From an uncultured Nitrospiraceae bacterium (GTDB taxonomy: Bacteria; Nitrospirota; Nitrospiria; Nitrospirales; Nitrospiraceae), in assembly GCA_963730935.1 (NCBI GenBank), contig CAVSTP010000002.1:288001-352000 (forward strand): a stretch of 64,000 nucleotides of DNA, read 5' to 3'. A program made the translations under genes and the position numbers. Below are positions 2,094 through 64,000 of this stretch, piece by piece. The stretch's first letter is position 1. Every line of letters begins with the position of its first letter. Below the pieces are notes generated by a model. That model did not search any database. It saw only the letters and a list, made by a program, of their open reading frames with translations, and had not been told where the DNA came from.

Positions 2094-2159
2094 GGACGCT
2101 CCTTAGATAAGGAAACGGAAAGGGCTGAACCGCTTTGATGCGCATCCGGCATGCGCCGG

Positions 2160-5325: not shown

Positions 5326-5394
5326 CGGTTCCTCCTCCACTTCAGCATAGTTCTTATCAGAGCCGTGTAACGACTCGATTGGTTGTTCACGCAG

Positions 5395-9198: not shown

Positions 9199-9211
9199 CG
9201 GACGCCGACCT

Positions 9212-10423: not shown

Positions 10424-10553
10424 GGCAAACGTATCCCCTTGTAAAGTAAGGGAACCTAGCACAGGAATGCAGGTGAAAGCAAATGATCGAGTGGTGGGCG
10501 ATGAAGGGGGCTTCGAGCGCGGTGTCACCCGGGGTTATGATACTCTCTGATCA

Positions 10554-12015: not shown

Positions 12016-12143
12016 AATGAATGTATCCTGCTGAAATCGTGCGGCATGGTACTGCCGCAATAGGTCGAAAGCAACGCTTGACTTGGACTCGTGATGCAGT
12101 ATTCTTGGCCGGCGCAGAGTTGATTGACCTGGAGGGACATGCG

Positions 12144-12749: not shown

Positions 12750-12939
12750 CGCAGCCGAGCGCCAGGTAGTCGAACCCTCGCTCTCGCCTCCATCCCTGAG
12801 TGCCCACGAGTGTCTCTTTTCCGGATTCTCGTGGAGACCCTAGTTGTCCTCTTCCAGTCGTGCCTCCATGCTGTAGATCCAGCCAACGGGTGGTTCCGTA
12901 GTGGAAGAGACGAGTCCACCCTTCACCGATGGAGGTTCT

Positions 12940-13305
12940 ATGAAGATCGCATTCTGTTCTCTCGCGCTCGGTGTGCTCTGGTATGTGGCCACGCCGGCCA
13001 TGGCGGATATGGGAAAAGATGCCGGTCCCTTGAAGGCGGCTTCCGGCTCAAAGGCGGAAACTCACATTGCGGCCGGCATTGAACATTACGGCAAGGGACA
13101 TTGGGACGTGGCGAAAAAGCATTTCGCCGAAGCCGAAAAGGCGGATCCTCAGTCGGCTGAGGCGCACTACGATCTTGCGCTGGCGCTCGACAAGGCCGGA
13201 GACCATAAGAGCGCAACAGAGCACTTTCAGCGTGCACAGACGCTCGGGAAAGACAACATGGAGATCCAGCAGTCGGAGATTCTGAAGAAGCACCTCAAGA
13301 TGTAG
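12940..13305 (+). CDS. Exported tetratricopeptide-repeat protein
   Basis: Signal peptide ending PAMA; TPR patterns (DPQSAEAHYDLALAL); GGAGG SD. Confidence 0.8.
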   Translation: MKIAFCSLALGVLWYVATPAMADMGKDAGPLKAASGSKAETHIAAGIEHYGKGHWDVAKKHFAEAEKADPQSAEAHYDLALALDKAGDHKSATEHFQRAQTLGKDNMEIQQSEILKKHLKM

Positions 13306-13323
13306 ACGAGCTGCGGCGGCCGG

Positions 13324-14346
13324 TCAGGCAACTTTGGTCGGCCGCCACCTGAGCCCGGCATTCAATAATTCCTGGAGCAGCTCATCGTACTCGTAATCGG
13401 CGCTTTCCGCGGAATCGGCAAAATCTTCATTGCGCGCAATTTGTGGATTCGGATTGGCTTCGAGTACATACAGGACCCCCTGCGCATCCATCCGCAAGTC
13501 GATGCGGGCGTAGCCGCTCAATCCCAGCGCGCGGTATACCCGCTTGGCAAGGTACTGGATCTCCTCTGCCTTTCCCGCCGGAAGATTTTTCGCCTTCTCC
13601 GAAGTAATGCCGTACTTGTCCTGATACTTTCGACTCCACTTCACCCGTTCAGTCGCAATTCTGCGGGTGTCCTCAGGCAGGTTGTCCATCTTGAGTTCCC
13701 ATACCGGCAACGCTTGAAGGCGGCCGTTGCCGATGACACCGACGTAAAGCTCCCGCCCTTCGATGTAGCGTTCGATTAGCGCACCGGTGCCCACGCTTTC
13801 GTGAATGAATGCCACGCGCTCTTTCAGTTTCCCGTCGTCTTCCACGATAGATGCCTGGGAGATGCCGAGAGAGGCTTCTTCGGTGATGGATTTGACAATC
13901 AGCGGGAACGAGAGCCACGTCGGACGCTTGACCGTCCGACCTTGGGGCGCCACGATAAAATCCGGAAACGGAATGCGGTGAAACGAAAACAATTTCTTCG
14001 CCAGCACCTTGTCGCGGGCCAGCATCAACCCTCGAGGATTGCAGCCGGTGTATGGGACGCGCAGCAGTTCCAAATACGAAACGACGTTTTGGTCATACAC
14101 CGCGAGGCCGTCAAATTCTTCGAGCAGGTTAAAGGCGATGTGGGGACGCCATTCCTCGATCGCGGCCCGAATGACGCCGAGATCGCTCTTCACCCCAAGC
14201 GGCCTGACGTCGTGCCCCAGTGCCCGCAGGGTGGTCACCACATCGTATTCCGTTCTCCACTCGGCGTTGGACGGATCATGACCATTGAGAGGGTCTGGCG
14301 GAACTAAGTCACCATGCATGAGGACGAGGACGCGCAGTCGTCTCAT
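13324..14346 (-). CDS. D-Ala-D-Ala ligase-like ATP-grasp protein
   Basis: FNLLE, PYTG, DK, IVKS...EASLGI, ERYIEGRE, YARIDLR, LEANPNP. Confidence 0.9.
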   Translation of the reverse strand: MRRLRVLVLMHGDLVPPDPLNGHDPSNAEWRTEYDVVTTLRALGHDVRPLGVKSDLGVIRAAIEEWRPHIAFNLLEEFDGLAVYDQNVVSYLELLRVPYTGCNPRGLMLARDKVLAKKLFSFHRIPFPDFIVAPQGRTVKRPTWLSFPLIVKSITEEASLGISQASIVEDDGKLKERVAFIHESVGTGALIERYIEGRELYVGVIGNGRLQALPVWELKMDNLPEDTRRIATERVKWSRKYQDKYGITSEKAKNLPAGKAEEIQYLAKRVYRALGLSGYARIDLRMDAQGVLYVLEANPNPQIARNEDFADSAESADYEYDELLQELLNAGLRWRPTKVA

Positions 14347-15404
14347 ACCGCCACCTTGTGACGTCCGCTGCGTAAATAGTTCATTGTGTGGACCGTCAAG
14401 AGGATCGTAAAGTCGAGCTTCGCCTGTTCCTCATCGATCGGCAGGCGCAACCGCAGTTCGCGGCATCGTTCGATCATGTCTTCGAGCACTTGATCGATCG
14501 TGTACTGATACTCACCCGTCCAACTGGCAACCTTGCGGCGGACCTCACGCCGAAATCGGTTTAAGAATGCGGCGGCGCTCATCTTGTCTCCGTGGACGGA
14601 GTCATCCGAAAAGAGCCGCTTCAAATCTGGGTCATAGGAGGACGATCTCGCGACCCCATAATGTCCGCGCTTGCGTGCGTAGTGCTCACGGAGAGTTCGC
14701 TTGAGCATGGGCAACGGATCCACCTGCTCTGTCGTGGTCACGACCGGCGGCACACCGGCCAGTCCCTTCATGAGACTGTCCATGTATTGGAGCTTTCGCA
14801 TGACAGGCCATCCCTTGTACCGGTCGGCCCACAGCGAGTTCGGCGTCAACCACACGGCGAATGTCTCGGCAAAGTCTTCATCGGGATGGCTTTGCGCGTA
14901 CCATACATCCAGGTGCCGCACAAAGCTGCGGCTGTAGGGTCGAGGACTGTAATACTTGGGATAGGGGTCTGAAGAGCGTCCAAAGATGCGTTGTCTGCCA
15001 CGCGAGCGGCGGATCCGGTACGCGTTCTCGATGGCATGCCCAGCCTCATGCCGAAGGATGCGCATGCACCACTCCGCGGTGCCGCCCTCGACTTCGAGCA
15101 TCTGTGCCAGCTCGAGTCTCTCCAACCTCGGATGAGCAAGATAGAACGGGATGGCAATGCCCGGCACGCCGTCCGGCGTGAACCATTCGTTCGAAATCCA
15201 GAAATGTGGACGAAAGCAGAGGTGCTTGGCCTCAAGCTCCTGTTCGAGCTGACGAATATGGCGCGACAAAAAGGGACTCTCGATTGTGACGTTGAGACGG
15301 CACATGGGAAGATCGAGCAGCTTTTCATCGGACCAGGACACCCACGCAGGCTCGCGCTGACTGAGATCAGAGGGAGTTCGGTTTTTCGGATGCGCTCGCG
15401 CCAT
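14343..15404 (-). CDS. Putative zinc-binding metallopeptidase (Peptidase_Mx-like)
   Basis: HEAGH (HExxH) and YAQSHPDEDFAETFA motifs; ATGA overlap with the ATP-grasp gene. Confidence 0.85.
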   Translation of the reverse strand: MARAHPKNRTPSDLSQREPAWVSWSDEKLLDLPMCRLNVTIESPFLSRHIRQLEQELEAKHLCFRPHFWISNEWFTPDGVPGIAIPFYLAHPRLERLELAQMLEVEGGTAEWCMRILRHEAGHAIENAYRIRRSRGRQRIFGRSSDPYPKYYSPRPYSRSFVRHLDVWYAQSHPDEDFAETFAVWLTPNSLWADRYKGWPVMRKLQYMDSLMKGLAGVPPVVTTTEQVDPLPMLKRTLREHYARKRGHYGVARSSSYDPDLKRLFSDDSVHGDKMSAAAFLNRFRREVRRKVASWTGEYQYTIDQVLEDMIERCRELRLRLPIDEEQAKLDFTILLTVHTMNYLRSGRHKVAV

Positions 15405-15605
15405 ACCTTCCCCAGAGCATTATACACTTACTGAAATATAGCAGGTCGAGCGTTGACGAGGACCTGGCGGCTTGGACCGAGGGAGAAATTGTTTTCTTCC
15501 GCCCAAGAATGAACCGGAAGTAGCAACATCAGAGCTGGCCGGTCGGGCGGCGATGCACCGCCAGCATTCGACAGCGGATCGATCGAACGCGTAGAATGGG
15601 TTCCG

Positions 15606-16487
15606 ATGTCGCCGATCAGTCATTTCCGTCCGATACTGCCGAGATTGGACGACGCCACCGAACAGTTGCAAACGCGACTGCTCCGTCAGGTTGGGCAAAC
15701 GATCAGCGAGTATGGTTTGATCGAAGCCGGCGACAAAGTCATGGTGTGCCTCTCGGGCGGGAAGGACAGTTATGGGCTGTTGGATCTTCTCCTCGTGCTC
15801 CAGCGTCGGGCCCCTGTCCGGTTTGATCTCATCGCCGTCAACCTGGACCAGAAGCAACCCGGCTTCCCCGCACACGTCTTGCCGGAATATCTCACGTCGG
15901 TGGGGATTCCGTTTCGCATCGAAACACGGGACACCTATTCGATCGTCAAACGCCTCATCCCTGAAGGACAGACGACCTGTTCACTTTGCTCGCGGCTGCG
16001 TCGTGGTCATCTCTACCGCGTCGCCACTGAACTGGGGGCCACCAAGATTGCTCTGGGCCATCACCGTGACGACATTCTCGAAACGCTATTGATGAATCTG
16101 TTGTTCACCGGAAAACTCAAAGCCATGCCACCCAAGCTCCGTTCGAAAGACGGGCGGCATCTCGTCATTCGTCCCCTCGCGGCCGTCCGCGAGGCCGATC
16201 TTGCCCTGTATGCGGAACGGCGCGGGTTCCCGATTATTCCTTGCGATCTTTGCGGTTCCCAAGAGGATCTCAAGCGGAAGCAGGCGAAGACGTTCCTGCA
16301 GGAGTGGGAACGGCGTGCGCCCGGCTGTACCGACAGCATGTTCGCGGCGCTGTCAAACGTTGCCCCATCCCTCCTCCTGGACGGGAAACTTTTCGATTTC
16401 CGCTCTTTGGCCCTGGAGGATGCCGTCTACGGAGATGAAGACGGCTGGTTAGATCAGAAAGCGCCTAGCTCTTCAACCTGCTCGTAA
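15606..16487 (+). CDS. ttcA: tRNA 2-thiocytidine(32) synthetase
   Basis: SGGKDS PP-loop, [35 protein letters not shown]. Confidence 0.96.
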
Positions 16488-17001
16488 ATAGCTTGCGAAA
16501 TTTTGCGACCTTCGGCCCCACCACGGCCGTGCAGTAGCCCTGAAACGGATTCCGCGCAAAATATTCCTGGTGATAGGGCTCGGCTTCATGCCACGTGGCG
16601 GCGACGACGAGCTCTGTCACGATCGGATTGGAGTACACATGATCTCGAGTCAATGACGCCATCACGTCCTCGGCGATTCGCTTCTGCTCGGGACTGTGGT
16701 AATAAATTGCAGAGCGATACTGAGTGCCGACATCGTGCCCCTGACGGTTCAGCGTGGTTGGGTCATGAATGACGAAGAAGATCTCCAGGAGTTCGCGATA
16801 ATTGACCACGTCTGGGTCGAAGGAAACTTTGACTGCCTCAGCATGCCCGGTGCGTCCGCCGCAGACCGCCTCATACGTCGGTCGCTCCGTGTGACCGCCC
16901 GTATACCCGGATTCCACCGTCCGTACACCCTTCAGTTGATCATAAACGGCTTCTAGACACCAGAAGCATCCCCCCGCAAGTGTCGCGACCTCTTCTCTCA
17001 T
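16465..17001 (-). CDS. msrA: Peptide-methionine (S)-S-oxide reductase
   Basis: [27 protein letters not shown]. Confidence 0.96.
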
Positions 17002-17145
17002 GATGCGTTTCAGACCTTTCCAGCATCCGCCAGTTTCAATACACGAGGACGCAACCACCGGCCGGCGGCGCCAACAGGCACTCGATGTATAGCATAGGAA
17101 AAGGCACGCTAGCGAGACAGGAAGAAGGCAAAGACTGGGAAGGGA

Positions 17146-17502
17146 CTAGCGTCTTCCGGGTTTGAGATTGGCGATCAGTTGCCTGAGCTTCGCCCGTTCA
17201 TCCGGATGCATAGCGGTAAATTCCAGGCCGAAGACATTCCCTTTGACCCAGCGAACCTGCGCCTCGTCTATGCGCAACGGCCAACTTAGCCCGGGCGCGT
17301 AAATTCTACATTCAAATGCCGCATTGGACACCACCGGCTGATCGGATTCGATGCGGCATCCGCCGTCCGAGAGGTCCAGGGTTTTTCCTTGCCCTTCGCG
17401 CTGCCCACCCGAGAAGGTACTGCGAAACTGGGCGGTAAAGCGTGGGTGCATTCTCTTTTCTGTTCCGCGATCCTTTTTCAGTACCTGAGCTTTCATTGCC
17501 AT
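17146..17502 (-). CDS. PilZ domain protein
   Basis: RMHPR (RxxxR) and DLSDGG (DxSxxG) c-di-GMP-binding motifs. Confidence 0.88.
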   Translation of the reverse strand: MAMKAQVLKKDRGTEKRMHPRFTAQFRSTFSGGQREGQGKTLDLSDGGCRIESDQPVVSNAAFECRIYAPGLSWPLRIDEAQVRWVKGNVFGLEFTAMHPDERAKLRQLIANLKPGRR

Positions 17503-17603
17503 CGATACTCACCTCCACCATCGTGGTACCGAGCACAAATGACGCACCCCGACGCTCTCACGAAGAGAATTCGTCGGGGCGCCTCGATGCCTTCTTGAGG
17601 AGC

Positions 17604-29784: not shown

Positions 29785-29862
29785 GTGAAGTAATTCTCCT
29801 GGGGCAGCAACGACTGAGTTAGCTACTCAGTCGGGAGCGCAATCCTGAACGCTCTGCCGCCC
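29785..29862 (+). ncRNA. Candidate structured leader RNA, homologous to 62200-62278
   Basis: Outer stem GGGCAGCA/TGCCGCCC, perfect CGACTGAGT/ACTCAGTCG hairpin; first 28 nt match the reverse complement of 62251-62278 at 25 positions. Confidence 0.45.
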
Positions 29863-30367
29863 ACCCACTGCAACCATGACAACGGATTTGTATGACATGG
29901 TCTATCCAGTACCAGTCAATGGGCCGTTCGACGAACGCTACTTGCATGAAGACATCAAGAAAATGAGCGAATCAGAAATTAAGAGAGAGTGGGAACAGGC
30001 AGGACTTGCCGAATGATGGAACATCAGCCGCACCAATGGCTGGTAGAGAGGATCGATCGACTTCGAGAGGGTTTGAAGCATGCCAACTGATCGATTAAAG
30101 GGCGAACATGCAGAGTAAAAGCAAGAACAGCCGAAGCGCTGTCACGCCGCGGCTGTTAAACCACACCACAAGACACATGGAGCAAGCAATGGCAAGCATA
30201 CAGGAAAGTATATTTACGGGCACCTCATTCCAGGGGGCAATAAAGCGGCGGTTGATCGGCTTGATGGACCTGCGGATAAGGCCAGGCGTGAGGAGGAAAC
30301 CGCAACCCCCGCGCAACCGGCGGGGTTGGGTGGAATCGGCAACAGACCCGAACTGCTTGATTCTATG

Positions 30368-30413
30368 TGGTGCGCCCGGCAGGAATTGAACCTGCGACCT
30401 GCGGGTTCGAAGC
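30368..30413 (-). repeat. 3' half of tRNA-Arg(UCG), att-site remnant
   Basis: GCTTCGAACCCGCAGGTCGCAGGTTCAATTCCTGCCGGGCGCACCA with only a vestigial D arm upstream. Confidence 0.85.
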
Positions 30414-30490
30414 GGACTGCTCTATCAAACTCAGCACATCTAGTGGCTACTCATTCAATGAGTTAACCACCTTTCTCTCTTTTCTTGTCT

Positions 30491-30540
30491 CTCTCAATCG
30501 CTCTCAGTTTTTCTCAGTACACGGACACTTTACGGACACT
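30491..30540 (+). promoter_or_regulatory. Putative att-arm elements (Xis-type phased repeats and integrase arm sites)
   Basis: YTCTCA at 30491/30501/30511 (10 bp period), ACGGACAC at 30521 and 30532 (11 bp period). Confidence 0.5.
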
Positions 30541-30811
30541 GGTGATAAATACCGCCCTTGATGTTTTCTCTATACGTGGTCAGCACATCGAGATGCTCAA
30601 GGTACTTGGCAACCGCAGCGAATAAAACATTGTACGTCACCAAGTGCAAGAAACTGCGTCTGTCTCATAGCCAGGCCAGAGTAGCTCTCTTGCGAAGAAG
30701 AATGAGGTGTTGAGGTTTTCTCGGCGTGGGTTCCTATCACTGAGCTGTGCAATAAGCGGTCGGTCATTGCACAAGGAGATAGAAGCGACCTGCGGTTTCC
30801 GAATTGCTCTC

Positions 30812-30880: not shown

Positions 30881-31103
30881 GTGAACCGTCGAAGTACAAT
30901 GAAAGAGCTCAGAGGGAACTGACAACATCCCTAAGCACTCATCTCTGAGCCGATTCAAAAAGCTTGCTTGAACAGGCCGTCACCGCTTTCCGCATAAGCG
31001 TCCCCACCAATAGTCCGTCCTCACTTTGGAGGTGAATCCGTACACGCTGAAGCTCGTCGTTCTGCTTGTTAGCATTTGTCGGATATGCCGTCTTTGGCTT
31101 CCA

Positions 31104-31283
31104 TCATCCCTTTCCTTTCGGGAGATGGCCTTTTCGTTCCAAGTCCGCCACGTGATCAACCAGAAGTTGGACGACGTATTTCTGAATGCTTCGCCCTCCG
31201 CTCAAGGCAGCGGCAGCTTTTAATTTGTGCACGAGATCATCTGGGACATTGCGTAGATACAGAACCTTAGGCTTAGTAGCCAT
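31104..31283 (-). CDS. Ribbon-helix-helix protein (FitA/Arc-like)
   Basis: LYLRNVPDDLVHKLKAAAALSGGRSIQKYV pattern. Confidence 0.75.
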   Translation of the reverse strand: MATKPKVLYLRNVPDDLVHKLKAAAALSGGRSIQKYVVQLLVDHVADLERKGHLPKGKG

Positions 31284-31418
31284 GGGCCGGCGATAATATC
31301 GCAACAACTCCGGCCGACACAACTCCTTTACCTGCTCACTAGCAAAGACTATACTATGCTAGCAGATGTCGCAGAGCTGGCATTGATGATAAGCGCTGCG
31401 ATTGTAAGCGAGTGTGAT

Positions 31419-31619
31419 ATGGCGAAGAGCAGCAAGCCGGACTTTCTAACAGAGGAGCGGCTCCTAGCGTGCCTCATGTTCCTGAGCAAACTGCGCAAGA
31501 GCGGCGTGACAAATATGTTCGAAATTCGGCTGAAACTGCGCCATGCATTCCCCGATCTCACGACGCATCAAGCTGCCGAAGTCCTTGCGTACTGGATGTA
31601 CACGTTCGCCGCTGCATGA
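31419..31619 (+). CDS. Small phage-type hypothetical protein
   Basis: LRKSGVTNMF...AAEVLAYWM motif recalled from small phage proteins (DUF5049-like). Confidence 0.6.
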   Translation: MAKSSKPDFLTEERLLACLMFLSKLRKSGVTNMFEIRLKLRHAFPDLTTHQAAEVLAYWMYTFAAA

Positions 31620-31635
31620 CCTGTTCCCGAGAGTC

Positions 31636-31956
31636 ATGATCGAGCGCAGCCATCAGAGATTTCCCGTCTCCCTGTCGGGAGCCCTCTTTGCCTATGACAA
31701 ATCGTGGCCGGATACCATTCGATCGGTAGATCTTTCCCGAACTGGTTGTCGGATTGAAAACACGGTTCAGGTCGTTCCAGGCATGAATATCGCTCTCTTT
31801 CTGTTCCCTCCTGGAGAGGACAGTCCCATCGTTATTCATGACGCCATGGTTCGGTGGTCTGGGGCTGAAGGCATCGGGATCGAATTCCACACTATCGCCG
31901 ACCGCTATCGAGACCATCTAGATCTCCTGATCAATCAACTGAAGCAGCCGCACTAG
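31636..31956 (+). CDS. PilZ domain protein
   Basis: RSHQR, DLSRTG, VRW...GIEF. Confidence 0.85.
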   Translation: MIERSHQRFPVSLSGALFAYDKSWPDTIRSVDLSRTGCRIENTVQVVPGMNIALFLFPPGEDSPIVIHDAMVRWSGAEGIGIEFHTIADRYRDHLDLLINQLKQPH

Positions 31957-32136
31957 CAGCTCAGCAGGATCGACCACTAGGCAGAAGATAAGGCCGCCAA
32001 GGACCATCAACCGCTTGGTCAGTCTGCCTTAGGCCGGAAAGCTACAAAATGGTCTAGTTGCCACTTCTCCAATTTTTTACCTACCTCTTTCAGGGAATAG
32101 CGTCCGCCTTTCCGACTGTTTAGGATTCTGAACAGG

Positions 32137-54927: not shown

Positions 54928-55397
54928 TTTTTCTCCGGACACGAAGGGCAGCATCGGCCTAACAGCACACTCGAGGCCACCATGGAAAAAGGTCCGGCAA
55001 ATAATAGTTGCATCGGGCTCACCAGCTTCCGACGCTAGCGACCTCTTCCCAGCGTATCTACTACGATCCTTCGTATCTTTTTCAATCCGATTCCCGGGAT
55101 TCATTAGCGACTCGTGCAGTGCCACGCGTCTCCCTAATCGACCCCTTTAAGTCTTTGATATAGCTAGTCTCCCAGCTTCTTGTTCATTGAAATATTTTAT
55201 CTATCCGATTGGTCCAGCAGTTGCTCATATGTCGTTCAACATGGGTAATGGAAATGAAGCCATGAGAAGTATCCTCGATTATGTGCTCGTCCTGACAGTG
55301 CGATTAGGTGCAGGCTCTACGCTCGTGATGTTGAAGAATCTCTGGCCCTAGGAAGAGAGCGTGAAAATAGATTCCCGCTTCTCCGAAGGAGGTTGCG

Positions 55398-55766
55398 ATG
55401 AAACACGTTATGGCAGTCATCATAGGGTGTAATCTAGTTGTCTCTGCTTTCGTGGTTGTAGATTCGGACGCCTGGAGCGGCTGTACTATTGAGCAGCGGA
55501 TTGAACTAGGCAATCAGGGATATGGGAGGGATGAGGTGGAAAAGGCCTGCAGTCAAAGCGGGAATGGTTTCTGGAAGAATGGTCTTACAGATGCCTTGGA
55601 CAAAGCATTAGGAGGAAGCGGAAATAGCTATGCTTCATCGGCCACTCACGGTGCGAGTATGTGCAGTACGAATTACGGGAGCTGCCCCCTGTCAGGAGGG
55701 CCTATGGGCTATCCCTGCTATTGTCCCGGATGGAATGGTTACACAATCACGGGCATCTCAAAATAA
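55398..55766 (+). CDS. Secreted Cys-rich protein
   Basis: AAGGAGGT SD, signal peptide, MCSTNYGSCP...GYPCYC. Confidence 0.7.
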   Translation: MKHVMAVIIGCNLVVSAFVVVDSDAWSGCTIEQRIELGNQGYGRDEVEKACSQSGNGFWKNGLTDALDKALGGSGNSYASSATHGASMCSTNYGSCPLSGGPMGYPCYCPGWNGYTITGISK

Positions 55767-56050
55767 ATCTACTCCAGACTGGGGCTTCCAAGTCAGCTAT
55801 CCGCCCGCATGGGCGGCAGGGTACACACTCGAAAAAGACCCGCTGTTATTCCGGCATGCTGTAGTCCGCGTGTCTTGCAGTAATGGAGTCGAACCGTTTT
55901 CATAAACAGCAATTCGCCAGTCTGGCTAGGCGTGGGAGTCCTCATGAGGCCAGCCGCCCTGCCTGAACATGGCCGGGGGGCCTCTTCTCCCAGGTTGGAA
56001 GGAATAATTTTCAGTTTGTCGTCAGGCCGGCCCGGCACACCGCGTCGAAC

Positions 56051-56069
56051 ACGGACAACGCACGGACAC
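56051..56069 (+). repeat. Tandem ACGGACA repeats, putative integrase arm sites
   Basis: Same motif and 11 bp period as 30521-30539. Confidence 0.5.
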
Positions 56070-56261
56070 CAGGCCAGCGCACCGTTACTTTCTATAGGGT
56101 TGTGAAGGCACGTTGGGTCTAGAACCTACCGTTCCTACCGCAGACAAAAGAAGGATGAGTTTCTGAAGGACCATATTCGGCATCGGCCTGACTATCTGAA
56201 AGGATGGCGGGCATTGATGAGGGATTAGTAGTCGAGTGCGGGGATGAATTAGCGGACTAAC

Positions 56262-56657
56262 CTATTTGCTGCGCGTTGATGGACGTTCCATGCGGCCACG
56301 AATGGCTTCTAAGTCTGAGGTCAGTTTCTGAAGATTCACAGCGATAATTTTACTATGCTCTGCATCATCCATGTAATGTTGACGCATCTCGTGGGTAAAG
56401 GCATCAAGCTTCGTAGTCACACTATCCAACTTGTCATAAATACGTTTGACGCGCTCCTCGTCTGTCGAATCAACTTTCTGAACTTGTGTTCCCATTTCCT
56501 TAATTGCATCTTCAGCTTGAACCACGCGGGCGCCTAGGTTCCCAACATAAACTGCGCCTACAATGACGCCTCCAATTATGGTCACAACAAGTGCTAAGGC
56601 TACTGCATGATCAGTAATGAACCACCATAGCTGACGCATGGATTCGTCTCGTGCCAT
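56262..56657 (-). CDS. Membrane-anchored coiled-coil protein
   Basis: GGAGG SD, one TM helix then heptad-rich region. Confidence 0.7.
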   Translation of the reverse strand: MARDESMRQLWWFITDHAVALALVVTIIGGVIVGAVYVGNLGARVVQAEDAIKEMGTQVQKVDSTDEERVKRIYDKLDSVTTKLDAFTHEMRQHYMDDAEHSKIIAVNLQKLTSDLEAIRGRMERPSTRSK

Positions 56658-56739
56658 TAATCCACCTCCCAGAAACAACCTCCCAGATTATACCCCCCTT
56701 CCTTACCACTATCCAAAAGGAATACACGAGGGAAACTCA

Positions 56740-57975
56740 CTACCGGATCTTCACAAGATTGGATTTGGCCGACAGAGAGGCAAGATAGTCGCAAGTGCGC
56801 TTCATGGCCTGGCGGAGATCCTCTTCGGAGATGATGTTGTATCGGGAGAAGATTGAGGGGGTGCGATGGCCGGAAATCTGTCGAGCCACGTCAGGGTTGA
56901 CGCCTGCCCGTACCATATTACGGACAGCAGATCGTCGGCAGTCATGGGGGATGGGATACACTTCCACGGTGTGTCCGGTCACTGGGTGACGTTCGACCTT
57001 CACGAGACCGGCCGCACGACACGCACGCTTCCAGACTTTTCTGAACGTCCCCATCTGCTCCCCTCTCCGATGGAAGATATATTGGCAATCCATCTGCCTC
57101 GCGGCCAGCCGTCGCTCAATAACCTCTCGCAAGTCATTCTCCAAGGGGATCGCTCTCCCCTTCCGGTTCTTTGAATCCCTGGCGTGAAGGCGAATGGTCC
57201 AGGTTTCTCGATCGAAGTCAGCCCAGGTCAGCGCCTTCGTTTCGCCCGTTCGCATGCCGGTGAAAAAGCACCAGGCCATGTAGTCTTGGAGGTCACTGTC
57301 GGGCTTTCCACGAACGGTGAGCCGTGACAGAATTGCTTCGAAGTCTGCCCTATCCAAAAAACCCTGCCTAGCATTATCTTCCGGCAAGCTCTTGATGTAA
57401 GGCACATAGGTCAGGACCTGCTGTTCCTTGGCAAGTGTAAAGGCTCGCTGGAGGCCTTCCAGTTCCCGGTTGATCGTGGCATTCGCGGCCTGTTGCTCTT
57501 GCCGTCGCTCCATATAAGCGTTGATCCGATGTGGCGTCACCTCGAGCACTCGATCGTTCCCGAAGAACGCGCGAATGTGTTTCAAATGCTGTTGCAGGCG
57601 GGAGAGTGATGCCAGACCCCGCAATTCATAATGACGTTCCAGTTCCTCCAGCAGACATAGCACGGTGATCCGTTCTTGCTGTGGCCCGCGAAATGGTTGG
57701 ACGCCAAGCCGATGAGCTGCCAGCTCGTCTTGACGCCGTTTCAGCAGTTTTCTTGCCTCCAGTTCGGTAGCTCCCGCTGACTCACGCACTTCAACGCTTC
57801 GCCCATCCCGCTTCACATAGTAGGCAATCCAATACCGTTGCTTGCGCTGGTAGATCCGTCCTGCTCCATGTGGACGCTTCTTTCGTGGTCGTGATTCACT
57901 GGTGACCAGAGAATCGACTAACGCCTGGTGGGATGGCCAATGCTCATTCACGGTGATTGATTGAGTTCCCCTCAT
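56740..57975 (-). CDS. Tyrosine integrase
   Basis: TGMR, SK, HDCRR, SGH and SRY catalytic residues; N-terminal arm-binding-type domain (GRIYQRK...WIAYY). Confidence 0.95.
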   Translation of the reverse strand: MRGTQSITVNEHWPSHQALVDSLVTSESRPRKKRPHGAGRIYQRKQRYWIAYYVKRDGRSVEVRESAGATELEARKLLKRRQDELAAHRLGVQPFRGPQQERITVLCLLEELERHYELRGLASLSRLQQHLKHIRAFFGNDRVLEVTPHRINAYMERRQEQQAANATINRELEGLQRAFTLAKEQQVLTYVPYIKSLPEDNARQGFLDRADFEAILSRLTVRGKPDSDLQDYMAWCFFTGMRTGETKALTWADFDRETWTIRLHARDSKNRKGRAIPLENDLREVIERRLAARQMDCQYIFHRRGEQMGTFRKVWKRACRAAGLVKVERHPVTGHTVEVYPIPHDCRRSAVRNMVRAGVNPDVARQISGHRTPSIFSRYNIISEEDLRQAMKRTCDYLASLSAKSNLVKIR

Positions 57976-58027
57976 GCATGTGTGATAGTTAACGATATCA
58001 TGCTATCTTAACTATACTCAAGAGGGA

Positions 58028-58345
58028 CTAGTGGCCTTGGTGCCTTCTGATGTACAGCTCAAGCCCATTGTTCGAAAACCTGACATACCTGCCCTGGCGG
58101 ATCATGAAGGGATAGGACCGTGCGTTCCGATAGATAAATCCCTTCGTCACATTAAGCCGAATAGCAACTTCGTCAGCGGTCAGCAGGCGGTCAGGCTGCG
58201 CTTGTACGTTTTTCCCTGTTCCTATGGTCATCTTGAGCCATAACGAGGCTTTCAGCTGCTCCAGGTGTCCCATGAGGAGGGGGCACTGATCAGGGGTGGC
58301 TCTTTCAACGGCTTCCGCTAGGACGCTCCACGTGTCTAGACTCAT
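58028..58345 (-). CDS. Excisionase-type HTH protein
   Basis: RLLTADEVAIRLNVTKGFIYR...GRYVRF, directly upstream of the integrase. Confidence 0.85.
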   Translation of the reverse strand: MSLDTWSVLAEAVERATPDQCPLLMGHLEQLKASLWLKMTIGTGKNVQAQPDRLLTADEVAIRLNVTKGFIYRNARSYPFMIRQGRYVRFSNNGLELYIRRHQGH

Positions 58346-58378
58346 CTCTCTTCGTTCTGGCTTCAGCGAGCCAGCCTT

Positions 58379-58621
58379 TCAACGCTCCACAACCACCACC
58401 ACGCGGTTATCTTCGTTATTTTCACGCATCTCAGTGGGTATCAGCCTGGCCGCAATGCGGTAGAACTCCGTTGGATTCTCTTTGGCCCATTTTGAAAAGG
58501 CTTCATGCCCACCGATGTCATCGTAGACGTGCTGAACAGCCTCACGGAAAGCAGTGGTCAGCCGGTTTGGCACGCCGGGCAGTCTTCCGCCTGTTTTTGG
58601 TTTGCCTGGTAGGAATGGCAT
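58379..58621 (-). CDS. Small terminase-like protein
   Basis: KTGGRLPGVPNRLT...WAKENPTEFYRIAARLIP resembles phage TerS-type proteins; AAGGAG SD. Confidence 0.65.
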   Translation of the reverse strand: MPFLPGKPKTGGRLPGVPNRLTTAFREAVQHVYDDIGGHEAFSKWAKENPTEFYRIAARLIPTEMRENNEDNRVVVVVER

Positions 58622-58650
58622 TCTGTTTCGCTCCTTTTTAGAAATTAGAC

Positions 58651-59058
58651 TTAGTTACCGAGCCCATCCAGGCCATGTTCCCTGACTGTCCACGCGGCCA
58701 GGAGCCGGCCCTTTTCGTTGGTTTGACCCACCGCACGAATGCTTGAAAGGGAAAGGTGTGCTCCATCGGTCAGGACAAGACGCCAGCCTGACCCGTGCCA
58801 CTGGCATTCCTTCACGGTGCCATGCTCCCGTTCGTCTGCGCCGCCCCGAAGTTTGTCGGTCCTGTCGCGATAGACCACAAACCAGCCAGACTCGAGCGGG
58901 GGAATGCGAGCAGGTTCCGAGGGTGGCTGGTCCTCTTCTGAATCCGCTGGAGCATCTGTCGGAACCAGCGGAAGGGGTGCCTTACAGACTAGACAGGCCG
59001 CCCAGTGGACGTTGACCACGGCGTGACACTGAAGGCATCGGCTGACCGTCAGGCTCAT
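58651..59058 (-). CDS. Zn-ribbon-containing hypothetical protein
   Basis: CLQC...CLVC N-terminus; start at MSLTVS. Confidence 0.65.
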   Translation of the reverse strand: MSLTVSRCLQCHAVVNVHWAACLVCKAPLPLVPTDAPADSEEDQPPSEPARIPPLESGWFVVYRDRTDKLRGGADEREHGTVKECQWHGSGWRLVLTDGAHLSLSSIRAVGQTNEKGRLLAAWTVREHGLDGLGN

Positions 59059-59097
59059 ACAGTCCGCCTTTTTCGCATAACCTGACAGGAAACATTG

Positions 59098-59272
59098 AGG
59101 CAACTTCCATGTTGCCTGCTCTGGAAAGAGTTTCCAGGTAGGCAACTCGTACACCCCGCATCTGGAGCAGCGTTCCGCCGAAAGTTTCCTAAATTCCCCC
59201 CGCGATTTCGCAGGAGCAAAATAGGCAACATTTTCACGCGGGAGGCAACTTTTGAGGCAACCATTAGGCAAC
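59098..59272. promoter_or_regulatory. Putative iteron replication origin
   Basis: AGGCAAC at 59098, 59140, 59223, 59243, 59255, 59266 and inverted at 59111. Confidence 0.7.
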
Positions 59273-60310
59273 CCCTTCCAGTGCCGCCTTGAGTTTCTTG
59301 ATGATTCTTGAGGCGTAGCCGGGGGAGATATCGAGCTCTATGGCGAGGTCGGACGGCCTAGTCACGCCGTTCTCAAACAGCTCTCTCGCCAGTTCAAACT
59401 TCGAAACTTCCACCGGCTGGTATTGCCAGATGAGTCCGTGACCTTGCTTCACCAAGCGCACATCGAGTGGGGCCACATCATCGCCCGTCACGCCCCGGCA
59501 TTTCGTGAAGTGCATTTCAAAGTGGCATCCGTCGCGGGCATCCCTCAAAGGCGGTTCCTTGAGTTGCACCACGGTGTCTAGCGCATCCTCCCGGCCGCTA
59601 GTGCCACGTTGCTGCCCCTTTTTACCGGAGTGGTGGACTAAGACAGTGGAGAGCCCCCGATGACGCAGGCGGATCAGCCACGCGTTGATCGGCTCCCAAT
59701 CCTGCTTGCTGTCTTCATTGATTCCGCTAAAAAGACAGGAAATATTGTCGAGGATCAGGACGCGGATGTCTGGGCGGGCCTCGAGGATTTTGACAATCTG
59801 TTGTTGCATGCCGTGCGACGTGAGGATGAGATCCTTCCCACCGCATCGCTGATACACCAGTTGACTGGTAAGGAATTCAAACGGGGCGGCTGGCGGCGTA
59901 TCCATGAGCGCCGTGGCGCGTTCTCGGAGTTCGTCCAGCTGCATCTCGCCATCGCAGTACAGCACTCCGACAGGCGCTTGGACCTTCCACTTCAGAAGAT
60001 CCTTGCCGTTGGTCAGGGAGACGCCTAAGGCCAGTTGGAGAAAGGTCTTGCCAATCCCCCGTGGGCCAAAGACCATCACGTTGCCGCCTTCAGGAAGCCA
60101 TGGGAGATGACGGGCTCGCTCTGGAATCTGCAGCGCCATCAGATCGGTATAGTTCACCAGCGCCCGTAAGAGATCGGGGGGCGTCCGATCCTCACTCAAT
60201 CTGTTCGCCGTGCCGTCCCCGGCCAGCATCTGTTCTATGCCTGTGGAAAGCCGCTCCTGCGCTTCATCAAAGGCAGTCGCGGCTTGGGTAAATGCAGCCT
60301 CACTAGTCAT
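59264..60310 (-). CDS. AAA_25/RepA-like ATPase (helicase) with C-terminal HTH
   Basis: GPRGIGKT Walker A, VLYCDGEM, LILDN, LVHHSGK, RGTS; C-terminal SDLAIELDISPGYASR HTH. Confidence 0.88.
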   Translation of the reverse strand: MTSEAAFTQAATAFDEAQERLSTGIEQMLAGDGTANRLSEDRTPPDLLRALVNYTDLMALQIPERARHLPWLPEGGNVMVFGPRGIGKTFLQLALGVSLTNGKDLLKWKVQAPVGVLYCDGEMQLDELRERATALMDTPPAAPFEFLTSQLVYQRCGGKDLILTSHGMQQQIVKILEARPDIRVLILDNISCLFSGINEDSKQDWEPINAWLIRLRHRGLSTVLVHHSGKKGQQRGTSGREDALDTVVQLKEPPLRDARDGCHFEMHFTKCRGVTGDDVAPLDVRLVKQGHGLIWQYQPVEVSKFELARELFENGVTRPSDLAIELDISPGYASRIIKKLKAALEGVA

Positions 60311-60759
60311 ATCGCCTCGCTTTCCAGGAGCTGATAGGCGGCCCCCAAACGCTCTAGGGCGGTGTTGAGTTGTTCGTGAGACCACTTGTCAATGCAGATG
60401 CCGCACGCGGAGTGAATGAATGCTTCTGCTTCTCGCAGAGCATCCATGCGGAGACCATTTGCTGTGTAGGTGGCCTGCTCCTTTGTCTTAGCTTGCTGGC
60501 GTGCTTCCATCGCCTGACGGCGTTCGTTAGGGTTGTTTCCCGTCGTGTCAAAGAACAGATCCTTGACCGAGAGACCCAACGCCCTGGTAATCTCTTCCAC
60601 CGTGCAACCGGCCCAGCACTTCAGCAGCAGGCCCCGGTTGCCTTCAGCTATCGTGAGTGATGGTGAGTTGTCTTGATGTGCGGGGCAGCGGCTAATCCAT
60701 TTGTTCGAGCCGCTAGAGCGTACCCCATCGAGCAGCGGCAGCAGTTCTGTGGCCATCAT
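60307..60759 (-). CDS. Stand-alone primase-type Zn-binding (CHC2-like) protein
   Basis: CPAHQDNSPSL...LLKCWAGC; ATGA-coupled to the ATPase gene. Confidence 0.82.
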   Translation of the reverse strand: MMATELLPLLDGVRSSGSNKWISRCPAHQDNSPSLTIAEGNRGLLLKCWAGCTVEEITRALGLSVKDLFFDTTGNNPNERRQAMEARQQAKTKEQATYTANGLRMDALREAEAFIHSACGICIDKWSHEQLNTALERLGAAYQLLESEAI

Positions 60760-60897
60760 GCCACGCTCACAGTCTGGCGAACGTCTAGTGCATCATGGAG
60801 TTGACCGTGTGCTCGGTGGCAGTCCCGGAATCGCTCTTGTAACGCTAACCGGTAATCAGGTAGGCTTTGCATCGTTCACCCTATACAGTTTGTGTTG

Positions 60898-60934
60898 AGC
60901 CGCCGTGGAGGTCGCACTCCCGGCGGCTTTTTTG
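60898..60934 (+). terminator. Intrinsic terminator on the strand antisense to the element operon
   Basis: AGCCGCCG...CGGCGGCT stem followed by a T run. Confidence 0.6.
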
Positions 60935-60945
60935 TTCATCGGGAT

Positions 60946-61173
60946 TCACTTCACCACCTTGTTCTGCTCCGCTCGGGTTTGTACTTGGCGTCGTAACGCC
61001 GCCTTCGCTTCTTCAATATCCACTCGCACTCCGTACCCTTTATTGCCAGCGGCATAGGCCGGTACTCTCCCGTTCTTGCAGAGCCGATAGAGGCTCGAAG
61101 GAGCCATGCCTAATTGGCGTGCCGCCTGTTTGACACTGACCAATGCACCGCTTGTTTGGTTGTCGTCGCTCAT
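60946..61173 (-). CDS. AlpA/excisionase-like HTH protein
   Basis: LVSVKQAARQLGMAPSSLYRLCKNGRVPAY; AAGGAG SD. Confidence 0.82.
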   Translation of the reverse strand: MSDDNQTSGALVSVKQAARQLGMAPSSLYRLCKNGRVPAYAAGNKGYGVRVDIEEAKAALRRQVQTRAEQNKVVK

Positions 61174-61420
61174 GTATCTCCTTCCATGTTGCTCAGGTTG
61201 TTCCCCTATGGAACAACAATGCCTATTTATCCCTATCGTATGAAAAAGAGCGAAGAGAGCAGGCATGAGATGTCTCAGAGGCGGTTCTAAGACCTTGGAT
61301 TTAAATGTTAATTCGTGAACTGGAGACCGAGAAGCTTAAGGCAAGTGTAGATAGGGACGGAAAAGGCCTCTTTATATCCCCATTGAAAACTATGAGAATT
61401 TCCGCCGGTGGGCTAAGGCA

Positions 61421-62170
61421 TTATGTGTGAGAGTTCGCGGAGGGAGGTTGGAGAGAATCGAAAAATTTTTTGAATGCACGAAGGGTGGCCTCGTCCGGCT
61501 GCTGTGAGGGATTAGCTAGGAAGCACTGAAGGACGTTTATATACTTATTTATCAAACCACTGAAATCTTCGAGGTCCGTCTCTCCCGGTGTGACTGATGC
61601 TGCGATTTCATCAATATGTTTCAGGTGCTTTTCCCACTTCCGGTATTGTCTGAGCATGGTATCTGCATTTGGAGGCTTGATGCCGTAACAATTAGTGGTC
61701 CATAAACTTGAACTAGTATCGCCATCTTTACGGAACAGCGCTTTCACTTGTTTGGCGACTTGTCTGCAAGCCTCCGTCTTTGACAGTCCCCCAATCACGA
61801 GCTTGTGGACTGCCTGGCATAAAACCTCCAGCATGTTCTTCCGCACTCTTTGAGGGACCTCGGCGGCTTTCGTCTTCCCTGTCCCTTCCCCCTTGAAGCC
61901 TAAGGCAATATCTAGCGACTTAATGTCCGGCGATGTGATGCGGTCGTTTGTCGCCGCCTTAAATAATTTGACGGCCCACATGGGGGCGGCAATGCCGAGA
62001 AGTCCCGCGCTTACCATTGCTGACGTTGCCAAAAAGGGGGTCTTCGGCTCGGTGTAATGGCATTCGTACAAGCTCAGGATTGCCTCTCGGCGCCAAGGTT
62101 CCGCTTCCCCCTCAAGCTGCTCATCGAGAAACGCTAGAAAAGGATCTGTTGTCTGTGGATTTGTGGACAT
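61421..62170 (-). CDS. Hypothetical protein, first gene of the element
   Basis: 249-aa ORF with AGGAGG SD. Confidence 0.7.
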   Translation of the reverse strand: MSTNPQTTDPFLAFLDEQLEGEAEPWRREAILSLYECHYTEPKTPFLATSAMVSAGLLGIAAPMWAVKLFKAATNDRITSPDIKSLDIALGFKGEGTGKTKAAEVPQRVRKNMLEVLCQAVHKLVIGGLSKTEACRQVAKQVKALFRKDGDTSSSLWTTNCYGIKPPNADTMLRQYRKWEKHLKHIDEIAASVTPGETDLEDFSGLINKYINVLQCFLANPSQQPDEATLRAFKKFFDSLQPPSANSHT

Positions 62171-62362
62171 GTCCCCTCCTGTCGGGTCCTGGTGAGGAGG
62201 GGCAGCGCCCGCGCCAGGAAACGCGAGCCGGCCAGGGGATCAAGCCCGACCGTTGCTGCCCGAGGAGAATCATTTCACGCCGCGCACGTCAAGTGCGTGG
62301 CTAATCATGTCTACCTCAAGCGTTGTATAATCGCAACGCAAGGAACGCTCCAGAAGGAACAG

Positions 62363-62596
62363 ATGGGGAAAGGCGACAAAGGGAAACAGAAGTTCATGAT
62401 GGGCTTCCGGCCAGTCGTGCGAGCCCGTGAGGGCCGCATGCTTGGCATCCGTCAGCCACTAGACGGACCCATCTTCGAAACGATGAGAGATGCTGAGAAC
62501 TGGTGCATCCATGCCATGATCAGTCACTTCGATAGACGGCTTGGCATGTCGGATGCGACGATTGAACCGTTCAAAGGGATGGTGCTTTGTTTCTGA
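62363..62596 (+). CDS. Hypothetical protein
   Basis: AAGGA SD, protein-like small ORF. Confidence 0.45.
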   Translation: MGKGDKGKQKFMMGFRPVVRAREGRMLGIRQPLDGPIFETMRDAENWCIHAMISHFDRRLGMSDATIEPFKGMVLCF

Positions 62597-62685
62597 AGGA
62601 CGTCTAAGCACTGCAGCCGTTTTCCACGTGCTTATTTACCATTCCGAAGCCTGACTAGAGGTTCGGATTCTCATTCTGAATCGTT

Positions 62686-63051
62686 ATGCATCAATTGCGA
62701 CCCTGCTTTTTCGGACTGGTTCTCATCACAATAGCCCGATGTTCCGGAGGGGAGGAGGGCAATCAAGGAAATCCTGGAGCGACGGTGTCATTGATGTGGG
62801 ATCCAGTTATTGATGCATTGCCGATCAGCTATACGGTGCATTATGGTAAGGAATCGCCTCGCAATGTCGGATCATGCAAGTACGAGTATTCTTTGAGCAC
62901 GTCCGAACCCTTTGCCACCATCACCGATCTTGAATTTGATGCGATCTACTACTTTGCCGTCAGTGCCTTCAACGGACTTCGCGGCCCTTGTTCCAACGAG
63001 CTAGTAAAAGTGACCGGAAAACCAGGACAGGACACACCACAAAGCCAATAA
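62686..63051 (+). CDS. Fibronectin type III domain exported protein
   Basis: VSLMWDP...YTVHYG...TITDL...YYFAVSAFN...SNE. Confidence 0.78.
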   Translation: MHQLRPCFFGLVLITIARCSGGEEGNQGNPGATVSLMWDPVIDALPISYTVHYGKESPRNVGSCKYEYSLSTSEPFATITDLEFDAIYYFAVSAFNGLRGPCSNELVKVTGKPGQDTPQSQ

Positions 63052-63436
63052 CAACACTGTTCGGCTAGCACCCTAGTCAGTTGACCGAGTTGCAAAGGAC
63101 ACGGGTAGCCAGTAGCGACGCGAAACCAGGTACAGACGACGAGTAACTACACCCACAATATCCTCCCTAAATCTTCATCTAGCTTACGCGGACGGCAGCA
63201 ATCATGAAAATCCGTCCCCTATGGCGTCCTGTTCTTCAAGAAACAGATCCAAGTTCTCCATCACAACATCCCACCACGTGCCCCCATCTCCGAAGCAATC
63301 CGCTCAATGTGCGCTTTCAGTCGGTCGTCCCACTCGTGCGTCCACTTCCTGATGATGAGTTCTTGAATAGCTAGCTCGGATTCTGCTACTCGATTCATGT
63401 TTTCAACAGGGAACGTGAATCAATCTATTTCCATCT

Positions 63437-63982
63437 TTAATACTTATCTGCATGGGAGCCACCACGCACGCACCAGACATGCCTTGTCCCCGTCTTTCCC
63501 GAATCCCCAGTGGTGCCATCAAAGAAGCGAACTTCCCATGCTTGTGTCGGAATGAACGCTTGTCGGACATCGGTCGTGGATGACCAGTAGGCCGACTCGA
63601 AAAGTCCTCCGGTTTGGACATTTTGAAAGGGATGACCAGGAGGAAGAGCTGGTCCGGGGGCTGGGACGGTCGAATCAACCAAACTCGCCAACTCTTCAAT
63701 TAATGGAAGATGCCAGCCCATTCGACCTCCAACTTGTCGCAGCCAGCAGGTTCTGACCGCATCCTCCCATGAACGCGAATTTGTTTCTGGCGACTTTTCC
63801 CACACTAGCCCTGTCTCACGGTCCAACACTGCGGCATTTCCAAAATCTGGCAAGACAACAAATCGCCTGTTGGCGTTCACGATGATGTTGCTCCAAGATT
63901 TTAAGTGCGGCTGCGTCGCTGGATCGAGAGGATCGGAACCGAATGCTCCCAGAGGATTCAGAATGACTAGAATAGCGCCCAT
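63437..63982 (-). CDS. DUF1566 (Lcl C-type-lectin-like) protein; frame is open to the window end
   Basis: VLDRETGLVWEK, GWHLPLIEELASL, YWSST, VWCVRGG. Confidence 0.88.
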   Translation of the reverse strand: MGAILVILNPLGAFGSDPLDPATQPHLKSWSNIIVNANRRFVVLPDFGNAAVLDRETGLVWEKSPETNSRSWEDAVRTCWLRQVGGRMGWHLPLIEELASLVDSTVPAPGPALPPGHPFQNVQTGGLFESAYWSSTTDVRQAFIPTQAWEVRFFDGTTGDSGKTGTRHVWCVRGGSHADKY

Positions 63983-64000
63983 CGCGAATGGACTAAATGC

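Follow-up and report, generated by a model that had tools for sequence, protein, structure and literature searches.

We analysed a group of co-oriented genes in a 64,000-nt stretch of DNA from an uncultured Nitrospiraceae bacterium (assembly GCA_963730935.1, contig CAVSTP010000002.1, positions 288,001–352,000 of the forward strand; ‘the window’, in whose coordinates positions are given). With somewhat more confidence than doubt, we read this module as the core of a tRNA-targeting family of Nitrospiraceae elements, likely satellites resembling phage-inducible chromosomal islands (PICIs), in which a leader RNA is predicted to control whether the first gene is translated. Little is known about what moves the large tRNA-linked islands of Nitrospira genomes, and the family is a candidate vehicle for them. 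Labels such as L018 denote matched loci in other genomes or contigs, and coordinates prefixed G000 refer to the window’s own genome. All named open reading frames (ORFs) are encoded on the minus strand, within 56740–62170, in the order given by a preliminary description of this DNA; read from the leader onwards, the features are:

62168–62260, minus strand: leader RNA, a three-way junction (P1/P2/P3) with two CAGGA copies behind it, of which the second serves as the Shine-Dalgarno (SD) sequence of ORF1
61421–62170, minus strand: ORF1, 249 aa, all-helical, no Pfam family
60946–61173, minus strand: AlpA/Xis-like HTH_17 protein, 75 aa (PF12728, E 8e-7; phrog_66, excisionase/regulator)
60890–60931, U-run on the plus strand: strong hairpin in the gap separating alpA from the primase gene (z -4.7; terminator scan)
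60307–60759, minus strand: protein with a primase-type zinc-binding domain, 150 aa (phrog_6088, DNA primase N-terminus, E 3e-13)
59264–60310, minus strand: AAA_25 (RecA-like helicase) protein with a C-terminal winged helix-turn-helix (wHTH), 348 aa (PF13481, E 1e-25; Walker A and B present)
59098–59272, no strand assigned: iteron cluster, seven copies of AGGCAAC
58651 to ~59058, minus strand: small ORF with N-terminal CxxC pairs, start uncertain (weak DZR match)
58379–58621, minus strand: TerS-slot protein, 80 aa (phrog_11043 / DUF5681-like)
58028–58345, minus strand: excisionase-like HTH_17 protein (Xis), 105 aa (phrog_66, E 5e-6)
56740–57975, minus strand: tyrosine integrase (PF00589, E 5e-20; catalytic motifs present)

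Pfam and PHROG scans assigned the integrase to PF00589 and two further proteins to HTH_17 (phrog_66), and recognised the primase zinc-binding domain and the AAA_25 protein with its winged helix, leaving three module ORFs without a named family. The AlpA-like protein matched PF12728 above the cut-off and gave no match to AlpA itself (PF05930). All frames of the module are open, the integrase and helicase motifs are intact, and terS, the helicase gene and int are under purifying selection (int dN/dS 0.024 against its 91% identical relative L064; terS dN/dS 0.07–0.15 in three of six comparisons, dS being saturated in the other three). Homologues of the CxxC ORF occupy the same slot in L018, L058 and L252, and Xis homologues precede the closest integrases. 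The terminator-like hairpin at 60890–60931 faces against the operon and is absent from the related loci examined.

The module is not a solitary arrangement. The search for syntenic modules suggested in the preliminary description was made with a profile of the 80-aa ORF, which retrieved 16 genome loci; nine of these (L015–L023, all Nitrospiraceae) are syntenic, and the other seven are orphan or differently arranged. The shared order is HTH/AlpA, primase or primase-polymerase, helicase, small ORF, TerS-slot gene, Xis, integrase and, at the integrase 3′ end, a tRNA gene (Gly, Leu, Pro, Arg or Ser), with a duplicated tRNA fragment bounding an element of 5.1–11.9 kb in eight of the nine. The distal integrase proposed earlier holds for all nine relatives, in each of which it is the last gene, co-oriented with the others and pointing outward to the tRNA. 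Since helicases differ across the family (AAA_25, DUF3631, DUF3987, PriCT, DnaB) and integrases are only ~24% identical to that of the window, modules have evidently been exchanged. A second, leader-selected set comprised 16 loci with enough flank, 12 from the leader search and four from the integrase search: 14 carry a co-oriented recombinase (12 tyrosine, 2 serine), nine an AlpA-like gene and five TerS. As the leader recurs while the other genes vary, no feature of the family is more constant than it, and TerS is optional. From sequence comparison, the family is modular and tRNA-integrated, 5–12 kb long, with a leader, a variable ORF1, AlpA, replication genes, iterons, optional TerS, Xis and a distal integrase, its targets being tRNAs and tmRNA. 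The idea of a satellite family mixing PICI-like packaging with a P4/C4-like RNA therefore survives in part: a family with a TerS slot and a structured leader does recur, but TerS is optional and the RNA, judged by Rfam, is not of the C4/CI kind.

Further elements were seen alongside these. The window’s own genome holds a second family member at tRNA-Leu(GAG) (G000:C2:535618-540383), with an integrase 76% identical to those of L017–L020, a primase and a helicase; its TerS slot is occupied by a different HTH gene, and the leader search gave no match there. L255 (G233:C1, ~1750–17520) is a 15.8-kb tRNA-Lys element with leader, HNH and Terminase_4 TerS; its 829-aa protein has no Pfam family and looks tape-measure-like by eye, which makes L255 a candidate cos-type or late-gene-capturing satellite. 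L253 and L261 are leader-bearing elements with large serine recombinases at tmRNA.

The 80-aa protein is likely a small terminase, as judged by gene context. It has 168 homologues, several of them 77–80 aa long, and the equal length indicates that the window’s protein is not truncated. Homologues in annotated phages number nine records of two phage types; in both records examined (Xylella phage Xfas53 gp30, called DUF5681, and Sulfitobacter phage pCB2047-A) the gene lies directly before terL, portal and scaffold. Similarly, TerL follows downstream in 9/9 IMG/VR contigs with a homologue (two of which, L009 and L014, appear to be one virus), adjacent in seven and 0.3 and 3 kb away in the other two. 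Furthermore, L255 has its canonical TerS and HNH nuclease in the same position as the TerS-slot gene, and the TerS-slot homologue of L259 matches the TerS family phrog_2538 (E 3e-5). The TerL-adjacent phage homologues and the slot shared with canonical TerS make the protein a likely TerS by position, and tie phrog_11043/DUF5681-like, an unannotated small phage protein family, to the small-terminase slot. An initial viral scan with the single 80-aa protein gave one chance match in a cytochrome c (L005), which was dropped.

Several results speak against a packaging role. While the earlier TerS-like assignment is supported by the context before terL, structure comparison of 58379–58621 was uninformative, with no TerS fold match (model pLDDT 69; BFVD none under E 1; PDB Foldseek none; VIA-align best Z 3.5), a sequence profile found no match in PDB, and neither Pfam nor any named TerS profile matched. 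TerS is found in only 5/16 leader-selected loci, and the TerS-slot gene in 18 of 371 genomes of the bacterial family, some copies being partial. These elements may instead be tycheposon-like cargo shuttles that move without packaging redirection, in vesicles or by generalised transduction, the TerS-slot protein jamming phage terminase as a defence. Such an account would accommodate the 11/16 loci without TerS, the free swapping of replication modules and recombinases (12 tyrosine, 2 serine of 16) and the TerS homologues that stand as orphans at tRNA islands (L004, L024–L030); tycheposons themselves split into shuttles and PICI-like forms in one gene pool (10.1101/2020.12.28.424599; here and below, statements about published systems hold for the accessible portions of the cited papers). 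We nevertheless consider it unlikely, though well short of negligible: in nine loci the TerS-slot gene always stands at the same point behind the origin, and the canonical TerS of L255, unrelated and accompanied by HNH, takes the same position, as expected of a packaging role.

The replication genes come with a likely origin. AGGCAAC occurs seven times at 59098–59272, in sets of three (one inverted) and four, where 0.02 copies are expected per 200 bp, and only 4 of 10,803 windows of the contig reach six copies of any 7-mer. The iterons claimed earlier are therefore real and far above chance; they also recur with the same helicase, L018 (helicase 72% identical) having the same 7-mer seven times at the same place behind the helicase gene. 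Elements with other helicase types carry other short repeats, as predicted for an initiator-specific origin. The two iteron sets are separated by a spacer without AT enrichment (AT 0.45, the module value). On this sequence pattern, the cluster is likely a replication origin and the AAA_25–wHTH protein likely its initiator.

The leader RNA was found, with the 95 nt before ORF1 as query, at 37 places in 33 of the 371 genomes (E<1e-5). In the 30 fetched loci it ends at an SD sequence and start codon, and a frame of at least 130 aa opens behind it in 21. In an alignment of 33 rows, which is sequence-only and whose rows are related, helices P1–P3 are 87–93% paired, with both-sided changes in 15 of 19 pairs. 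Slid control structures are 36–57% paired versus 92% for the leader structure, a comparison in which the latter is favoured because it was taken from folds of member sequences. The excess of G-U over A-C pairs (74 versus 14) indicates that the sense strand is the structured one. The P3 loop reads UCCUGG or UCCUGA and is complementary to two CAGGA copies 8–13 nt apart, the second within the ribosome site; both copies are present in 29/33 rows, and four rows lack one. The last P3-loop base is compatible with the base before the first CAGG in 29/29 rows (24 G-C, 3 A-U, 2 G-U), each of the three A-U rows being nearer to G-C rows than to one another. A -10-like TANNNT starts 10–13 nt before P1 in 10/33 rows (p ~5e-5, for a position window picked after looking). 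A covariance model recovers the leader in elements outside its training (L057, L058, L022) and detects it in 5/18 other genomes of the bacterial family and 0/132 genomes of other families in a phylum sample; within the sample, the leader is restricted to one bacterial family.

The P4/C4-like RNA control envisaged earlier is not borne out. Rfam gave no match to any C4, c4-related or isrK model at E<=1 over 55000–64000 and, over the leader at E<=10, three matches to other families, all at chance level, and the 45 nt upstream of the leader contain no seqA-like target copy (a longer upstream range was not scored). Among 80 listed of 120 viral stretches with a loose leader DNA pattern, the best covariance-model score was E 0.056. 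We conclude that the leader is a structured RNA outside Rfam, well supported by comparative sequence evidence; the 224-motif supplement of PMC5737381 may bear on its novelty, and a literature search for a matching candidate RNA or int-alpA arrangement turned up nothing relevant. A hammerhead or HDV-like leader was considered and dropped, there being no Rfam match and the covarying pairs not fitting. In many rows the P2 loop contains a self-complementary hexamer (UGAUCA, UCAUGA, UUAUAA), absent from the window’s own copy, which could possibly mediate a kissing-loop dimer. A degenerate second leader copy at 29796–29894 (plus strand), with an HTH fragment nearby, lies between tRNA-derived attachment-site (att) copies at 27032 and 30368 and is a remnant of an older family member in canonical orientation.

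Whether the structure acts as a switch is a separate matter. The conserved, covarying structure of the RNA-switch leader originally proposed is confirmed, but not the switch behaviour, there being no consistent folding change in ribosome-site access. Pairing of the P3 loop with the SD (second CAGGA) stands at 95% with compensatory change in 0/5 pairs; blocking the pseudoknot strands in nearest-neighbour folding left ribosome-site pairing at a mean of 0.57 versus 0.57 (up in 9, down in 7 of 29); and the window’s own leader is not unusually stable (z -1.5). All three count against a switch, although the folding negative is weak because nearest-neighbour models score no pseudoknots; the lack of a consistent predicted change in ribosome-site access leaves a regulatory switch plausible only. 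The leader might instead be a fixed structure, either a binding site for ORF1 or AlpA or a stabilising or processed trans-acting small RNA like P4 CI, and we place this not far below an even chance. The unchanged predicted access suits it, as do the second CAGGA, conserved anyway as a ribosome site, and the P2-loop hexamer, apt for dimer or trans pairing; however, a fixed structure does not readily explain a loop complementary to two CAGGA copies at a fixed spacing of 8–13 nt, in 29/33 rows, ahead of a freely exchanged gene.

That gene, ORF1, has six homologues at 57–73% identity. The slot proteins of the relatives (29, in 19 BLAST groups) are mostly unrelated, and 2/19 show sub-threshold HTH or RovC/DUF2285 matches. 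The ORF1 fold model (pLDDT 65) has no match in BFVD and only unnamed clusters in the Atlas; ORF1 is possibly a DNA-binding regulator. FseA/RovC (DUF2285) proteins are activators of AlpA-like excisionases (PMC10359603); the likeness lies in a regulator gene ahead of an alpA/xis-like gene and in a sub-threshold RovC_DNA-bd match of one ORF1 (L258), whereas the window’s ORF1 has no such match, which makes this a lead only.

The window copy departs from its relatives in its surroundings. The bounded compact element previously delimited at 56740–62280 is not supported: no direct repeat or tRNA fragment flanks it, and the core sits inside a 37.2-kb tRNA-Arg(TCG) unit, in the opposite orientation to the family layout and separated from the tRNA gene by 5.3 kb. 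The relevant features are:

30368–30545, plus strand: distal att of the 37.2-kb unit, a 46-bp exact copy of the tRNA-Arg(TCG) 3′ half (30368–30413) with an arm doublet at 30521
56049–56070, plus strand: internal arm doublet (ACGGACA twice), no att core beside it
67566–67642 (window-equivalent, 3.6 kb beyond the window): intact tRNA-Arg(TCG), its arm doublet at 67489

Older tRNA-Arg(TCG) fragment copies lie at 27032 and 21747. The genome has four arm doublets (30521, 56051, 67489 and one beside tRNA-fMet) where 0.27 are expected. The closest integrases (51–55% identical) are found ~120 bp from tRNA-fMet and the next closest at tRNA-Lys; integrases of this fMet/Lys clade share a doubled arm motif beside their tRNA, and in a tree of 16 rows, none dropped, the window’s integrase forms its own branch within the clade. 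Because arm doublets stand at both ends of the 37.2-kb unit and no second integrase was found in it, the simplest reading of the sequence is that the window’s integrase is the Arg(TCG)-specific integrase of this unit. Arm doublets also stand beside tRNA-Arg(TCG) in further loci of the genus (2 exact and 3 approximate, of 25), with no integrase within 1.5 kb. What tells against this assignment is that no att site adjoins the window’s integrase, and that none of the 25 genus loci has a tRNA-Arg(TCG) with an adjoining integrase of its lineage. A tRNA-like att core at 56100–56140, suspected by eye, was rejected (best score 30 versus a shuffle mean of 31). A metagenome scan with the integrase yielded one 1.3-kb contig, which ends 33 bp after the gene and is without att information.

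It is quite possible, if slightly less so than a fixed leader, that the family is a satellite family and the window copy is stranded, rearrangement of the island having severed its own att sites, of tRNA-fMet type, with loss of excision. The proximity of the closest integrases to tRNA-fMet, the lack of an att core or correctly oriented arm behind int, and the make-up of the island, a patchwork of pieces that recur at other tRNA islands, with a 673-bp duplication next to the leader, are all compatible with stranding. Against stranding, all frames are open and the catalytic motifs intact, the integrase lineage is separate from the fMet group, and the 37.2-kb unit has an exact 46-bp att copy with matching arms at both ends.

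The cargo of the island consists mostly of response regulators, PAS sensor kinases and fragments repeated in the other tRNA islands of the genome. A ~59-nt repeat at 55921–55979, with two predicted hairpins and no Rfam match, has ~9 diverged copies and an identical one 62 kb away in the tRNA-fMet island (G000:C2:406555-406613); other copies are scattered over islands of the same genome and of its relatives (L016, L084, L026), often close to att arms. The 673-bp direct duplication (62394–63066 and G000:C2:354223-354895, 99.7% identical), either recent or an assembly artefact, holds an fn3-like lipoprotein gene and a 66-aa ORF that occurs in ~10 copies, mainly close to tRNA genes. At G000:C2:403678-403713, a 36-bp tRNA-Arg(TCG) att fragment ~15 bp behind the tRNA-fMet arm doublet is followed by a ~1-kb block common with 30997–31961; this is a hybrid junction joining two tRNA islands that lie 48 kb from each other.

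The module carries no virion genes of its own. As stated in the preliminary description, capsid, portal, TerL and tail genes are absent: none was found among 61 ORFs (PHROG; from 27000 to 18 kb past the window end), so that the structural phage genes just outside the window by which a decayed prophage would have been recognised were looked for and not found. Nor did the 13 module and neighbour ORFs match these families, one weak coiled-coil match aside, and the module ORFs include no Psu, Sid, Delta or epsilon capsid-hijack gene. Only one ORF, outside the island and surrounded by housekeeping genes, matched ‘head maturation protease’; we take it to be ClpP. A decayed prophage that lost its structural genes is thus most improbable: the TerS-slot gene does have phage homologues, but no structural gene lies in the island or its right flank, the compact order with att ends recurs in eight other genomes under purifying selection, and no phage combining leader-ORF1-alpA-pri-terS with terL occurs among 80 viral loci. 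It also weighs against the satellite reading that no helper was seen, with PF05065 capsid absent genome-wide (other capsid and portal families were not searched genome-wide), and that public runs (4/17, in small share), too shallow for the purpose, showed no excision, circle, concatemer or virion DNA. Two weak genome matches to phrog_2 (E 1e-4) lie far from the module, and this profile also matches 11/14 control genomes. The public runs contained scattered 150–550-bp pieces of low-coverage relatives; a joint from 55983 to 66902 (window-equivalent), with a 37-letter side, was of low likeness and not taken as evidence.

Under the favoured satellite reading, a promoter just before the leader would give one transcript. 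Pairing of the P3 loop with the first CAGGA would free the ribosome site, which would otherwise be paired, and so set the level of ORF1 translation. ORF1 and AlpA would then drive excision by Xis and Int and primase–helicase replication from the iterons, and the element’s TerS would steer the TerL of a P22-like headful-packaging helper phage onto element DNA, packaged in normal-sized capsids. As the core is inverted and 5.3 kb off the tRNA, the window’s integrase would either cut out the complete 37.2-kb tRNA-Arg unit, which is roughly one phage headful, or excise nothing at all. A bolder version, which we regard as unlikely, though far less so than a decayed prophage, would make the three-way junction/pseudoknot switch the sole constant part of a family specific to Nitrospiraceae, with integrases, replication genes, TerS and the first ORF all interchangeable behind it; the RNA would sense helper infection and free translation of a master regulator, the rearranged core having captured a packageable 37-kb sensor-kinase/response-regulator island. 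Should the leader prove to be a switch, satellite induction would have a new form of RNA control in addition to P4 CI and IsrK.

The set of integrase, AlpA, primase and TerS is known in PICIs and also in tycheposons and VEIMEs. A four-gene PICI type (integrase, AlpA-like, primase-replicase, TerS; no capsid gene) includes experimentally mobilised elements, and the capsid morphogenesis gene, confined to type A PICIs, may be missing in type B (PMC10085698). From the PICI core set, the module has the integrase, the AlpA-like regulator and the primase-replicase with iterons, and lacks the capsid morphogenesis gene; for the small terminase, the gene context fits, while the protein is without a named TerS profile or fold match. 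The resemblance to Gram-negative type B PICIs extends to the two-set iterons, the likely TerS homologue (PMC6092414, PMC10085698), the lack of tail and lysis genes and the size of 5–12 kb. The differences are that the Nitrospiraceae integrase is last in a co-oriented operon and directed toward the tRNA, whereas PICI int stands at the att-proximal start; that a separate Xis precedes int; that the iteron sets are not separated by an AT-rich spacer as they are in E. coli PICI origins, which likewise have two sets (PMC6092414); that TerS belongs to the unannotated phrog_11043/DUF5681-like family; and that Nitrospiraceae are not among the host families named in those papers. Att sites flanking a ~10-kb element, as in PICIs, are absent from the window copy and present in its relatives. 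Tycheposons, defined by an inward-facing integrase and lineage-specific profiles, share tRNA targeting, tandem accretion with remnants building islands, optional TerS and a tyrosine/serine mix (10.1101/2020.12.28.424599), but the Nitrospiraceae integrase faces outward to the tRNA in 9/9 syntenic relatives. VEIMEs and PICMI are likewise small int/AlpA/primase elements, the former with optional TerS homologues near those of co-occurring phages and, like tycheposons, building tRNA islands, and are packaged as concatemers in full-size capsids (PMC9618062, PMC10803314); encapsidation is demonstrated there, whereas for the Nitrospiraceae family it is a prediction. PICMI, packaged without TerS, integrates at fis and has no terminase in its paper (PMC10803314), unlike the present family at tRNAs and tmRNA.

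That RNAs can control the early operons of satellites is known from P4 CI and its relatives in PICIs, which the Rfam C4/isrK models detect (PMC10111431, PMC4825925), and alternative folds of the IsrK leader control a ribosome site (PMC2864571). Like P4 CI, P1 C4 and Gifsy-1 IsrK, the Nitrospiraceae leader is a structured RNA heading an early operon, with a loop complementary to nearby downstream sites (PMC10111431, PMC4825925, PMC2864571); it differs in lacking an Rfam match and an upstream target copy within 45 nt, and in preceding a variable ORF1 upstream of alpA rather than lying inside a Bro-network gene. Given its integrase placement and att features, we do not class the family with PICIs, tycheposons or P4. 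It is set apart from known satellites by the outward orientation of its distal integrase, a TerS family without annotation, its host family and a leader outside C4/CI/isrK; by title and the start of abstracts, and with subscription papers outside the coverage, none of the papers listed in a literature search describes a phage satellite of this kind in Nitrospira.

Finally, the gene directly downstream of int (56262–56657, minus strand) encodes a 131-aa protein that combines a single N-terminal membrane segment with a coiled coil; the gene has its own promoter-like site, and the protein has weak matches to small phage membrane proteins.

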